Positions 1,957 to 5,128 of a stretch of DNA of 37,841 nt are shown here, in pieces; position 1 is the stretch's first letter; the number at the start of each line of letters is the position of its first letter. Below the pieces are notes generated by a model. That model was not told the DNA's origin, ran no database searches, and saw nothing but the letters and a program-made list of their open reading frames with translations. Made by a program: the position numbers and the translations under genes. The stretch spans positions 1-37,841 of the IMG/VR virus record IMGVR_UViG_2850808358_000012; one strand, given 5' to 3'. Origin of the DNA: a virus. Its lineage: Duplodnaviria > Heunggongvirae > Uroviricota > Caudoviricetes.

Positions 1957-2080
1957 CTCACCTCCTTTGCATCAATTCGCCACTATCTTAAAAAACATCA
2001 TGGGGTGAGTGTGGTTATCAGGACATAATCGATCTGTATTACCGATCGATTCAATTGATTCGATCGTCGTTTTCTATATT
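1957..2080 (-). promoter_or_regulatory. mom operon regulatory region (Pmom-like) with three GATC Dam sites
   Basis: GATC at 2031-2034, 2044-2047 and 2062-2065, 75-110 bp upstream of com. The minus-strand sequence ...gataaccacactcaccccatgatgttttttaagatagtggcgaattgatgcaaaggaggtgagATG resembles the Mu mom promoter as I recall it. Confidence 0.65.
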
Positions 2081-2521
2081 GCATTGATTAGCGGTGTTTA
2101 TGATGCAGATATCAAAGGCGCAACAGCATTAATACTCCACTTCAATATGAATACGGGGAGTTGCCCTGCTGTACAGTTCCGTGTGAATTATAAGAACGGC
2201 GGTATTTTTTATCGTTCAGCGCGTGATGGTTATGGATTTGAGGCTGGCTGGTCAGAGTTTTACACCACAACACGCAAGCCATCAGCGGGAGATGTTGGCG
2301 CATATACGCAGGCAGAATGTAACTCAAGGTTTATTACAGGTATTCGCCTTGGTGGTCTGTCATCTGTTCGGACATGGAATGGTCCCGGCTGGTCTGACAG
2401 GTCAGGTTATGTTGTTACCGGTTCCGTTAACTCAAACAGAGATGAACTAATTGATACAACTCAGGCAAGGCCAATTCAGTATTGCATTAATGGGACGTGG
2501 TATAACGCGGGGAGTATTTAA
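2009..2521 (+). pseudogene. 5'-truncated remnant of an alternative tail-fibre variable segment (S'v-like)
   Basis: C-terminal ~120 aa (...RPIQYCINGTWYNAGSI) parallels the C-terminus of the S tail fibre (...RPIQKYINGTWYNVAQV). The frame is closed at 2006-2008, no gix site lies upstream, and the ORF 5' part overlaps the mom regulatory region. Confidence 0.6.
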
Positions 2522-2523
2522 CG

Positions 2524-3057
2524 ATGATGCACTTAAAAAACATTTCTGCTGGTAATCCTGAAACAAAAGAGCAATACCAGCTAACGAAACAATTTAACAT
2601 CAAATGGCTTTATACAGAGGATGGGAAAAACTGGTATGAGGAACAAAAGAACTTTCAGCCTGATACGTTGAAAATGGTCTATGACCACAACGGCGTTATT
2701 ATTTGTATTGAAAAGGATGTTTCAGCAATTAATCCGGAAGGCGCAAGCGTCGTTGAGGTTCCTGATATTACAGCAAATCGCCGGGCTGATATTTCAGGTA
2801 AATGGATGTTCAAAGATGGCATAGTGATAAAGCGAACTTATACCGGGGAAGAGCAGAGGCAACAAGTGGAAAATGAAAAGCAAAGCCTGTTGCAACTTGT
2901 CAGGGATAAAACCCAGTTATGGGACTCACAGCTACGGCTGGGCATCATTTCCGCCGGGAATAAGCAGAAATTAACCGAGTGGATGCTCTACGCGCAGAAG
3001 GTCGAATCCACAGACACCTCCAGTCTGCCAGTAACGTTTCCCGAACAACCAGAATGA
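2524..3057 (+). CDS. Tail fibre assembly protein, alternative copy (U'-like)
   Basis: 177 aa and a clear paralogue of the 3086..3613 product ([22 protein letters not shown]... versus [22 protein letters not shown]...); convergent with U, as in the Mu G segment. Confidence 0.75.
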   Translation: MMHLKNISAGNPETKEQYQLTKQFNIKWLYTEDGKNWYEEQKNFQPDTLKMVYDHNGVIICIEKDVSAINPEGASVVEVPDITANRRADISGKWMFKDGIVIKRTYTGEEQRQQVENEKQSLLQLVRDKTQLWDSQLRLGIISAGNKQKLTEWMLYAQKVESTDTSSLPVTFPEQPE

Positions 3058-3061
3058 GAGA

Positions 3062-3086
3062 AGGCCCGCTATCGGGCCTTAATTTT
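3062..3086. terminator. Bidirectional hairpin terminator between convergent U' and U
   Basis: AGGCCCG-ctat-CGGGCCT followed by TAATTTTT. Confidence 0.5.
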
Positions 3087-3613
3087 TACTCTGGTTTTTG
3101 TGGCCATTCTGGCTTTGCCGTATCCACACGGCTGACCAGAACACTGTAGCGTTCCCATGACTCCAGTCGTGCGCGTTCCTCATCTGTTGCCATATTCAGC
3201 CTGACAGCGCGTTCCAGCGGCTGGATGACTGATTCAGCTTCGGAAAGCAATGCGGCCTTTTGTGATTCGGCCTGTTGCTGCTGTTCGTCTGCCGTATAAA
3301 TCCGCTTAACCACAGCTCCGTCCTTAAACATCCACTTCCCGGAATCATCGGCACGACGATTTGCTGTTATATCGGGGACCTCAACGACGCTAAAGCCTTC
3401 AGGATTAAGCGTGGAGGCATCTTTAGTGATGGCGACAATAATATTATTTTCATCGTAAACAATCTTTATTGTATCTGGCTGAAAGTTCTTCACTTCCTCA
3501 TACCAGTTTTTTCCGTCTTCTGTCCACAACCAGATTACGTCAAAATTCTTTGTTAATTGGTATTGCTCTTTTATCTTTGGGTTTCCTGACCTGATGTTTT
3601 TTAAATGCTGCAT
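3086..3613 (-). CDS. U: Tail fibre assembly protein U
   Basis: 175 aa, directly downstream of the S tail-fibre gene on the expressed strand. Confidence 0.75.
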
Positions 3614-3616
3614 GAT

Positions 3617-5128
3617 TTATACCTGTGCGACGTTATACCATGTGCCATTGATGTATTTTTGTATTGGTCTGAATACTGCTGGGTCATCACCATCAACAGA
3701 GCCAATAATGCCAAGCCCTGTTATTACATGACCTGATTTTTCATACATCACGCCTCTTTGCATGACCTGAACAACACGAGTACCAAGTCGAACATCTTTC
3801 ACATATCTGGAATCAAAATTGCCATAGTTGCCGGGAATAACTTGCGAGCCGCAAAGCCAGTTCCCGTTATTATCCATGTACGCCTGACCATCGGTGCCAT
3901 TGGCTGTCCTTGAGTTATTAATCATGTAGATGCCAAATTGCTTATTCCCCAGCCCACCAATTACGAATTTACGGTCGGTATGGTCCTGGCGAAGCAATGC
4001 CTGCGCACCATCGTTGGATACCGCATTACGGCCCAGAATAACATTCTGGTCACGCATATGAATCCACATGCCGGTACTACTGTTAATTGCAAAACGGTTT
4101 GCAAATATATCTCCTGTAACAACCAGACCATGCCCCATGCTTATCCGGCCAGTTCTGAGATTAAGCGTAAAGGGGCGTAATGGCCCTATATTACCATTTT
4201 CTCCCTCATTCTCTCGTGTAGGGATGATATGCAGGCATTCTTCAGAACGGCGAAAAATGGCACCAAAAGATGAATTAAATATCCTCAGTGCATTGACTGT
4301 CGATATTTTCACTTCACTGCTGAAAAGGGCTTTAACAAGAACAGACAAAGCATTCCATTTAAGATTCATCAGGTCTTTAGGCCGGGTGCCAATGATGCGG
4401 TGTCTCCATTTGAAATACTCATTGCCGTTGTCGCCTGTTTCAAACCACATGTATGAATCAGTATCGCTGTCGGCATCATTTTTAAAACCAATCTTTGCCC
4501 AGTCAGTATTCCGAATCCAGGCAAGGATTGAGTCGTTTTCAAAAGTAAGTCCACCGGACAACGTATCGCCATTTTTTTGCACAGCGTTCCTGGCCCGGTT
4601 TACCGTTTCCTGTAAACCGACGTTTTGGATAAACAGCGGCTTATTGGGAATATCTGCTCCGTTCCGGTCTTTTGCCAGACGGGCACTGGCATTATCCATC
4701 GCAATTTTCACCGCTTTTGCGGTGGCTGCCAGCGTTTCACTGGGGCTGTCAGTGGCACTGGTTAGCTGAACGAGTCCTTTTTTGTTCAGGCTGGCATCAT
4801 AGATATCCAGATTTTCACGTGCTGTACGCTGTGCTGATGCCCCGGCAGTTTTAATTTCGCTGAGGTTATTTTTTATCAGCAGCGCGTTATTGCTCATAAT
4901 GGCTTTAATGGACAGTGCAAGCTGGTTTAATTTTGTTTTATCCGGTTGAATACCGGCTTCTTCCAGCGTGTTTAATAACTCCGCCTGCACAATATTAAAC
5001 CAGTCCATGCCGGGCCATGTGATAACATTATTCCCGTCACCTTCTGAAAACCAGCGAACGATAGCACTACGCTGGGCGGATACGGGCGGCATGACGGTTA
5101 CGCCGCTGTCGTTATCAATATAAAACAT
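3617..5128 (-). CDS. S: Tail fibre protein S (constant part Sc plus variable part Sv)
   Basis: 503 aa; gix site lies in codons 166-174 (FIQNVGLQE); C-terminal tail-fibre motif INGTWYN. Confidence 0.75.
   Translation of the reverse strand: MFYIDNDSGVTVMPPVSAQRSAIVRWFSEGDGNNVITWPGMDWFNIVQAELLNTLEEAGIQPDKTKLNQLALSIKAIMSNNALLIKNNLSEIKTAGASAQRTARENLDIYDASLNKKGLVQLTSATDSPSETLAATAKAVKIAMDNASARLAKDRNGADIPNKPLFIQNVGLQETVNRARNAVQKNGDTLSGGLTFENDSILAWIRNTDWAKIGFKNDADSDTDSYMWFETGDNGNEYFKWRHRIIGTRPKDLMNLKWNALSVLVKALFSSEVKISTVNALRIFNSSFGAIFRRSEECLHIIPTRENEGENGNIGPLRPFTLNLRTGRISMGHGLVVTGDIFANRFAINSSTGMWIHMRDQNVILGRNAVSNDGAQALLRQDHTDRKFVIGGLGNKQFGIYMINNSRTANGTDGQAYMDNNGNWLCGSQVIPGNYGNFDSRYVKDVRLGTRVVQVMQRGVMYEKSGHVITGLGIIGSVDGDDPAVFRPIQKYINGTWYNVAQV
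4607..4632. repeat. gix-like recombination site (single copy)
   Basis: TTCCTGTAAACCGACGTTTTGGATAA differs at one central base from the Mu gix sequence as I recall it; no second copy found in the window. Confidence 0.7.

Follow-up and report, generated by a model that had tools for sequence, protein, structure and literature searches.

Loss of gin, gixR and part of S'v from a Mu-like prophage: a deletion that very probably locks the G-segment switch

We analysed a 37,841-nt stretch of viral DNA (IMG/VR record IMGVR_UViG_2850808358_000012, positions 1 to 37,841; hereafter "the window"), which is 100% identical to CP026877.1 (assembly GCA_002950035.1) and contains a complete Mu-like prophage. 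Our subject is its G segment, the invertible region in which Mu-type phages carry two opposed tail-fibre cassettes, Sv-U and U'-S'v, between the gix sites used by the invertase Gin. In a Mu-type ancestor of this prophage, one deletion very probably removed gin, gixR and part of S'v, and thereby locked the G switch in the S-U state. The features discussed below are listed in Table 1.

End-points were mapped in base-level alignments with Mu (NC_000929; locus L001), PhiR68_1, the gin+ E. coli prophage JCKP02 and several intact S'v genes. Window positions 1070-2109 align to L001 65-1105 and positions 2086-6000 to L001 2216-6132; the alignment to the Mu G-beta region proposed in an earlier sequence-only reading of the window thus places the absent Mu segment at L001 1074-2218. 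Relative to Mu and to 44 gin+ E. coli prophages, ~1.14 kb is missing, comprising gin codons 1-184, the gin-G spacer, gixR (L001 1681-1706) and the first ~175 codons (55%) of S'v. On the com side, the window is collinear with its relatives up to position 2079. Homology to the window stops at exactly this position in 51 of 51 E. coli genomes with the mom-com side, a recombinase gene lies beyond it in 30 of the 30 such genomes listed, and the com-gin region is intact in 44 E. coli genomes. At the junction, the last 29 nt of gin are joined to S'v codon ~176. Homology to S'v is unambiguous from position 2089 and possible from 2084, which leaves 4-9 nt of unassignable filler. The sequence-only reading had set S'v directly beside the mom regulatory region; that placement holds, with the refinement that the gin stub and the filler lie between them.

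Since neither break-point lies at a gix site and filler bases are present in the joint, we regard the event as an illegitimate deletion and not as a recombinase product. Three specific origins were considered and set aside. Deletion by Gin at a pseudo-gix site was suggested by CGTTTTCTATAT on the gin side, in which 8 of 12 positions agree with a gix half-site. The join, however, lies at the outer end of this sequence and not at a central dinucleotide; the filler bases and the lack of a break-point at gix further rule out such a deletion. A simple microhomology-mediated deletion is not supported, as CGCGGGGTGTTTTTTATACAGA on the gin side and AGCGGTGTTTATGATGCAGA on the S'v side are imperfectly similar and the join falls outside them. 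An origin in MutH action or a double-strand break at GATC was rejected as stated: every GATC is kept, and the join is 14-22 nt past the last one.

The single gix site, at the Sc/Sv boundary within S as had been read from the sequence, occupies the same S codons as gixL of Mu. Checked in the Mu record, it has 1 mismatch to Mu gixL and gixR, and the number of such matches expected by chance is 0. The mismatch is a G to C change adjoining the central dinucleotide. It is common to the gin+ phage PhiR68_1 and the gin+ IMG/VR prophage L015 (coordinates in gin+ relatives, L002 4916-4941 and L015 3071-3096) and is therefore not a sign of decay. A second gix had been thought absent, and this was borne out. 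A degenerate consensus scan allowing up to 3 mismatches found only 4607-4632 in the 37.8-kb window, and no further 26-mer of the window came within 9 mismatches of gixL, gixR or the prophage's own gix, a result no better than that for shuffled sequence. The segment is consequently not flanked by two inverted gix sites.

Nor is there an invertase gene between the fibre remnant and com, as the sequence-only reading had also claimed. Mu Gin compared by tblastn with all six frames of the window gave nothing above noise: the best match (E = 0.029) spans 41 aa and is in a reading frame other than that of the gin stub. The 29-nt 3' stub is all that lies beside the segment of a serine invertase gene of the gin/cin/pin/hin family. 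We take the recombinational enhancer (sis, Fis-dependent) to sit in the 5' part of gin. With gin codons 1-184 absent, no Fis-dependent enhancer is retained in cis; Fis sites inside the gin coding region have been reported (PMC3378877). As inversion needs two inverted gix sites and one is left, it is impossible here, and a host Pin or Gin supplied in trans would be of no help. With a single gix, no invertase, and S, U and U' intact, the S-U, G(+)-type state is fixed, which supports the earlier claim that the segment is held in one orientation. Both assemblies that carry the deletion allele (see below) are in the S-U orientation.

The genes of the segment agree with this picture. Sc and Sv are contiguous in a G(+)-type arrangement, and U', which had been described as intact and proved to be so, is left without a fibre partner. 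A G segment holds inverted cassettes (U/U' and Sv/S'v) that are ~55-70% identical; in place of two complete, opposed Sv+U cassettes behind a constant Sc, the window has Sc-Sv-U and U' whole and S'v in part. The remnant of S'v amounts to 143-145 of ~319 codons, within the C-terminal ~120-150 aa estimated earlier, and 143 aa of it align to Mu S' residues 186-328 with 93% identity. It is contained in a 170-aa open reading frame (ORF) at 2009-2521 and lacks Sc and gix as well as a start codon or promoter of its own; no convincing ribosome-binding site was found for it.

The same junction is present in a second prophage, IMGVR_UViG_2562617057_000010 (L056, the sister prophage), an independent assembly from a different isolate genome. 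Over window positions 996-2287, junction included, the two sequences have 0 mismatches, while elsewhere they differ by 0.2% in baseplate genes, 2-3% in head and tail genes and 11% in early genes. The right end of the sister prophage abuts P2-like terminase and capsid genes, not the Rhs locus that flanks the prophage in the window, and so lies inside a P2-like prophage. An assembly artefact can thus be dismissed, and the junction is real. Because it is shared by these two diverged prophages, the deletion allele is heritable and has existed in at least two genome backgrounds and at two insertion sites. A 25-nt junction sequence was found 0 times in 5,426 complete E. coli genomes, in GTDB species representatives and in metagenome contigs, and in the collections searched the junction was seen only in CP026877.1 and one IMG/VR contig.

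Substitutions between the two deleted prophages are unevenly distributed. Within the S'v remnant, nonsynonymous changes slightly exceed synonymous ones (4 vs 1), and comparison of the remnant with intact homologues gives a ratio of nonsynonymous to synonymous substitution rates (dN/dS) of 0.11-0.16. Differences in U' are mostly synonymous (15.5 vs 6.5). Of 56 differences between the deletion-carrying prophages, 35, mostly synonymous, fall in positions 2586-3212, a ~630-bp patch that covers U' and the 3' end of U, and an unrelated prophage group (L024, L026, L028) has a U' with 99.8% identity to that of the window. This patch looks like an import by homologous recombination with the fibre modules of other phages, and the substitution patterns appear to fit a silent S'v remnant combined with ongoing exchange at U'. 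A weaker reading is that the fibre cassettes of other phages may still exchange homologously with the silent U'/S'v cassette, which would act as a reservoir.

We propose the following sequence of events. The ancestor would have been a Mu-type phage with a normal invertible G segment of the order Sc-gixL-Sv-U / U'-S'v-gixR-gin. A single illegitimate deletion of ~1.14 kb would then have joined the end of gin to the middle of S'v, with loss of the invertase, gixR and the N-terminal 55% of S'v, and of the enhancer as well if it lies inside gin as we assume. From that point, the late transcript would always yield Sc-Sv and U, every particle would bear the same fibre, and the host range would be of the G(+) type; the S'v tip fragment and the intact U' would be unexpressed cargo. 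The com and mom genes and their regulation would be untouched, the deletion having stopped just outside the GATC-rich control region.

To place this allele among its relatives, gin loss was surveyed through Mom homology (42 IMG/VR loci), a 26-nt control-region motif (21 IMG/VR and 13 metagenome contigs) and BLAST in E. coli genomes. Full-length gin was present in the great majority of surveyed loci, including 44 of 46 E. coli prophages and 13 of 13 metagenome contigs. Gin-loss deletions were found in 6 of the 21 IMG/VR Mu-type contigs and in 2 of the 46 complete E. coli genomes. Besides the window type, a second type joins a ~37-nt gin stub to the last ~42-46 codons of U', has no gix, and carries a different, long fibre; its carriers are IMG 2875703104 (L019), E. 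coli S6 (NZ_CP107134.1) and, by an identical match end-point, E. coli 1290. In the third type, seen in four IMG/VR contigs, an in-frame internal deletion fuses gin codons 1-55 to a ~35-nt stub. Locked G segments are thus a recurrent natural state of Mu-type prophages. Two other arrangements were observed in the surveys. A fourth rearrangement, in L049 (IMGVR_UViG_2531839130_000007, ~3277-4121), runs from Gin residues 1-161 straight into Mom residues 103-241, so that com is lost together with the 3' end of gin and the 5' part of mom. L021/L105 (IMGVR_UViG_2690316161_000025) has two copies of the G segment, gin and com ~8.1 kb apart, a doubling that could represent adjacent prophage copies or an assembly duplication.

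The com-side ends of the three independent gin-loss deletions lie within ~8 nt of one another, 29-37 nt inside the 3' end of gin and 0-3, 4-10 and 7-8 nt upstream of the ATATAG that opens the conserved control region (break-points at window 2075-2090; L019 ~6760-6790; L088 6370-6385; L024 ~4760-4775, the last also in L025, L026 and L028). Their far end-points differ, at S'v codon ~176, U' codon ~135 and gin codon 55. By a post hoc calculation that assumes a uniform distribution over the 582 nt of gin, the chance of three ends in one 10-nt stretch is roughly 10^-3, and in roughly 80 Mu-type loci the remainder of the 3' ~550 nt of gin contained no deletion end. We suggest only tentatively that the upstream edge of the mom control region is a site-preferred deletion end-point. 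A bound protein complex, such as OxyR on unmethylated or hemimethylated DNA, might act as a barrier to a nuclease or replication fork; another possible cause is very strong selection against any loss from the control site of the lethal gene mom, and both may operate. Of the present results, this clustering is most likely to interest specialists in illegitimate recombination or mom regulation and is the most worth following up; the motif ATATAGAAAACGACGATCGAATCAAT is proposed as a marker for assemblies in which to map deletion end-points.

The control region itself survives complete in the window. OxyR presumably binds the GATC cluster upstream of Pmom, the exact site positions being our assumption, and the sequence from ATAG (2077, minus strand) agrees with 13 of 20 specified positions of what we take to be the OxyR consensus. 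Three GATC sites lie upstream of Pmom, and the deletion stops 14 nt outside the outermost one. In Mu, Pmom is controlled by Dam and OxyR, and a divergent promoter, momP2, is present (PMC3378877); the Pmom oligonucleotide sequence of another study (PMC4461284) matches the window. As a separate observation, momP2 would now be directed, in the sense orientation, into the S'v remnant (ORF 2009-2521) and the intact U'.

Several other explanations bear on how the missing DNA should be read. Collapse of the inverted U/U' and Sv/S'v repeats during assembly could in principle mimic a deletion, and the assembly does contain several single-base homopolymer errors in addition to a G segment with ~55-70% identical inverted cassettes. 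The break-points, however, lie in gin and S'v, which are not mutual repeats, the filler bases are unique, and the junction recurs identically in an independent assembly of another genome; an artefact is effectively refuted, and we give it almost no credence. Equally improbable is a switch that is still operated by a Pin- or Gin-type invertase of the host acting in trans on the known gix and a cryptic partner site. Gin, Pin, Cin and Hin complement one another, and potential sources abound: hundreds of E. coli genomes have matches to the gin part of the com-gin query, annotated as pinE or recombinase family protein, and the query as a whole is matched by 812 of 5,426. But no other window 26-mer lies within 9 of 26 mismatches of gix to serve as a partner, the S'v remnant without its first ~175 codons and gix-proximal joint could not form a functional Sc-S'v fibre, and the cis enhancer would also be gone if our assumption of its position within gin is right.

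A different view is that the deletion is one lesion among many in a decaying, dead prophage and is irrelevant to phage biology. Five late genes (gp42, gp35, I, gp30 and gp28) have -1 frameshifts, gp19 is absent, no gin-less isolate is present in the phage collection examined, and the S'v remnant shows its slight nonsynonymous excess. Each frameshift lies in a homopolymer run, four to five G or C long; together with a sixth single-base deletion (27224-27228), which is upstream of C and breaks no gene, the homopolymer deletions are at 10726, 16097-16101, 18269-18274, 19902-19905, 22815-22819 and 27224-27228. The runs are of full length in Mu and in the sister prophage, which has uninterrupted matches to every Mu late protein examined, and the frameshifts are probably sequencing errors in CP026877.1. 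In addition, the same allele occupies two insertion sites in genomes 2-11% apart, the 5-bp duplication is exact, and the ends and the com/mom control region are intact, which makes a dead prophage an improbable reading. Locking could, on the other hand, be adaptive: if all available hosts carry the receptor for the S-U fibre, no share of the burst is wasted on the other fibre, and loss of gin would be favoured and recur. The three independent gin-loss deletions and the persistence of the window-type allele in two diverged backgrounds are in line with this, as is the presence of both fibre types in equal ratios in induced Mu lysates (PMC4406740). The retention of gin in nearly all of the E. coli prophages and in every metagenome contig surveyed speaks against such an advantage, and the IMG/VR cases may be clonal isolates; we consider adaptive locking possible but doubtful.

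A deletion that locked the switch in a Mu-type ancestor thus remains our explanation, and we infer from the sequence that host range is fixed, that S'v and U' are silent, and that a gin-less Mu-type phage is viable in nature. Some points weigh against it. Among the isolated phages of INPHARED, none has a window-type or U'-stub-type junction; the shared junction could stem from recombination between prophages and not from descent through infection; and if the frameshifts are real, the copy in the window is defective. A host invertase or distant gix-like sites outside the window are possible, although they could not restore inversion of G.

The prophage as a whole combines a Mu-type late region with early functions of another kind. 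From the terminase genes to mom, the late region is collinear with that of Mu and ~94-97% identical by BLAST, and divergence from Mu is greater in the early region. By tblastn, gp27 through mom, minus gin, match in Mu order with com and mom at the right end, most at 90-100% identity and the lowest at 50% (gp36) and 72% (gp37); this is the late gene set of a Mu-like transposable phage. Mu gp19 is missing, at ~27346. Between gp27 and gp28 (terminase), ~600 bp (23673-24290) have no Mu counterpart and also differ from the sister prophage, and the small ORFs there, 23790-24065 (plus strand) and 24106-24471 (minus strand), have no Pfam match.

A DDE transposase, a MuB protein and a 5-bp target duplication are all present. 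The transposase ORF (34032-36206, minus strand, 724 aa) has Mu-transpos_C and HTH_Tnp_Mu_1 domains and just 27% identity to MuA, and the B protein is 74.5% identical to Mu B. Part of the transposase ORF has 90% DNA identity to Yersinia phages vB_YpM_5 and vB_YpM_6. The Mu c repressor has no match in the window, and ner is 35% identical; neither Mu-type TG...CA ends nor Mu c/ner immunity characterises this prophage. Given the 5-bp duplication, the termini are not TG...CA, and three ATTATTCAAGATAA-type repeats are present at the right end and two, in inverted orientation, at the left end (window 997-1080 and 37240-37392). On sequence grounds, the transposase, repressor and ends belong to a non-Mu type. 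Against an empty site in E. coli F8704-2, the insertion of 997-37392 is clean, the flanks overlapping by 5 bp at L118 1201-1205. The flanks (1-996 and 37393-37841) are 98-100% identical to E. coli DNA and place the prophage downstream of vgrG of a type VI secretion system, with a DcrB-related gene on one side and a PAAR/Rhs toxin gene on the other.

Table 1. Coordinates of features in the window
Feature	Position	Strand	Description
S tail fibre	3617-5128	-	Full-length, intact; 503 aa
Sc	4633-5128		Part of S; 99.4% identical to Mu
Sv	3617-4606		Part of S; 67.6% identical to Mu
gix site (gixL equivalent)	4607-4632	+	Sole gix, at Sc/Sv boundary; TTCCTGTAAACCGACGTTTTGGATAA; covers S codons 166-174
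U	3086-3613	-	Tail-fibre assembly chaperone of expressed set; 175 aa; 94.9% identical to Mu U
Terminator-like GC hairpin	3061-3080	+	Between convergent U' and U
U'	2524-3057	+	Tail-fibre assembly chaperone; intact, 177 aa, Caudo_TAP; 95.5% identical to Mu U'
S'v remnant	2089-2521	+	C-terminal ~144 codons, gp37_C tip domain; stop at 2521
Deletion junction	2080-2088		TGCATTGAT; matches neither parent cleanly
gin stub	2051-2079	-	TGA stop, last 8 codons (IENDDRIN), 2 nt; 29 nt left of 193-codon gin
GATC sites	2031-2034, 2044-2047, 2062-2065		First two in com-gin spacer, third in gin stub
com-gin intergenic region with Pmom	1957-2050	-	94 nt, retained intact; aligns base for base with Mu and gin+ relatives
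-10-like hexamer	1990-1985		TAAGAT; plus C-site-like sequence in com-gin spacer
com	1768-1956	-	62 aa; 96.8% identical to Mu Com
mom	1122-1847	-	241 aa; 97.5% identical to Mu Mom; PF25680
Complete Mu-like prophage	997-37392	-	36.4 kb; from whole-window BLAST against Mu and comparison with empty site
Target-site duplication, right copy	992-996		5 bp; TCCTT on plus strand, AAGGA in host orientation
Target-site duplication, left copy	37393-37397		

The closest known system is the Gin-operated G segment of Mu (NC_000929; also D108 and PhiR68_1), with which the window shares its gene order. Identities to Mu are 99% for Sc, 95% for U, 95% for U', 93% for the S'v tip and 97% for com/mom, and only 68% for Sv. 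Apart from its different transposase, repressor and ends, the window departs from Mu in lacking gin (except 29 nt), gixR and the first ~175 S'v codons. Related cassettes (Sv/U/U'/S'v, 88-95% identical) are found in the C segment of P1/P7 (Cin), the P segment of e14 (Pin) and P2-like invertible fibre regions, which are the likely donors of the U'/U recombination patch. In the records inspected, these elements have an adjacent recombinase gene and full alternative cassettes, and they are not transposable phages.

Two natural cases are also comparable. E. coli S6 (NZ_CP107134.1) and IMG 2875703104 (L019) have mom-com, a ~37-nt gin stub and a fibre-cassette remnant, with no gin and no gix, and their com-side break-point is within 8 nt of that in the window. 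Theirs is an independent, larger deletion in which all of S'v and most of U' are gone, and the longer fibre is annotated as a "pyocin knob" protein. In the Shigella phage SfMu, host range is unchanged between induced and infection-grown lysates, and the authors suggest that G inversion was lost through a 1-bp change beside the central dinucleotide of one inverted repeat (PMC4406740). The gix of the window is also altered at that position. SfMu nevertheless keeps gin, both repeats and full S' and U', whereas in the window parts of the switch are deleted.

For annotation, U' and the 170-aa ORF at 2009-2521 should be described as leftovers of a broken switch and not as a working alternative fibre, and the phage is best treated as one with a single host range. 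More broadly, the Mu host-range switch has been lost repeatedly in nature, with one loss persisting in two diverged genomes, and such recurrence bears on the value of bet-hedging by inversion for a prophage.

The laboratory precedent is provided by Mu itself. Deletions across the G-beta boundary abolish gin function and fix G in the (+) orientation, and the phage still forms plaques. These "frozen G" mutants, among them gin- point mutants and non-defective G/beta-junction deletions (for example Mu 445-5), were reportedly described by Chow, Kahmann and Kamp (1977) and Kamp et al. (1978). Their functional outcome is the same as that proposed here; they were selected in the laboratory, whereas the present deletion is a natural allele in two wild prophages. 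The window is a natural analogue of the frozen-G Mu mutants, a derivative of a well-known system and not a new kind.

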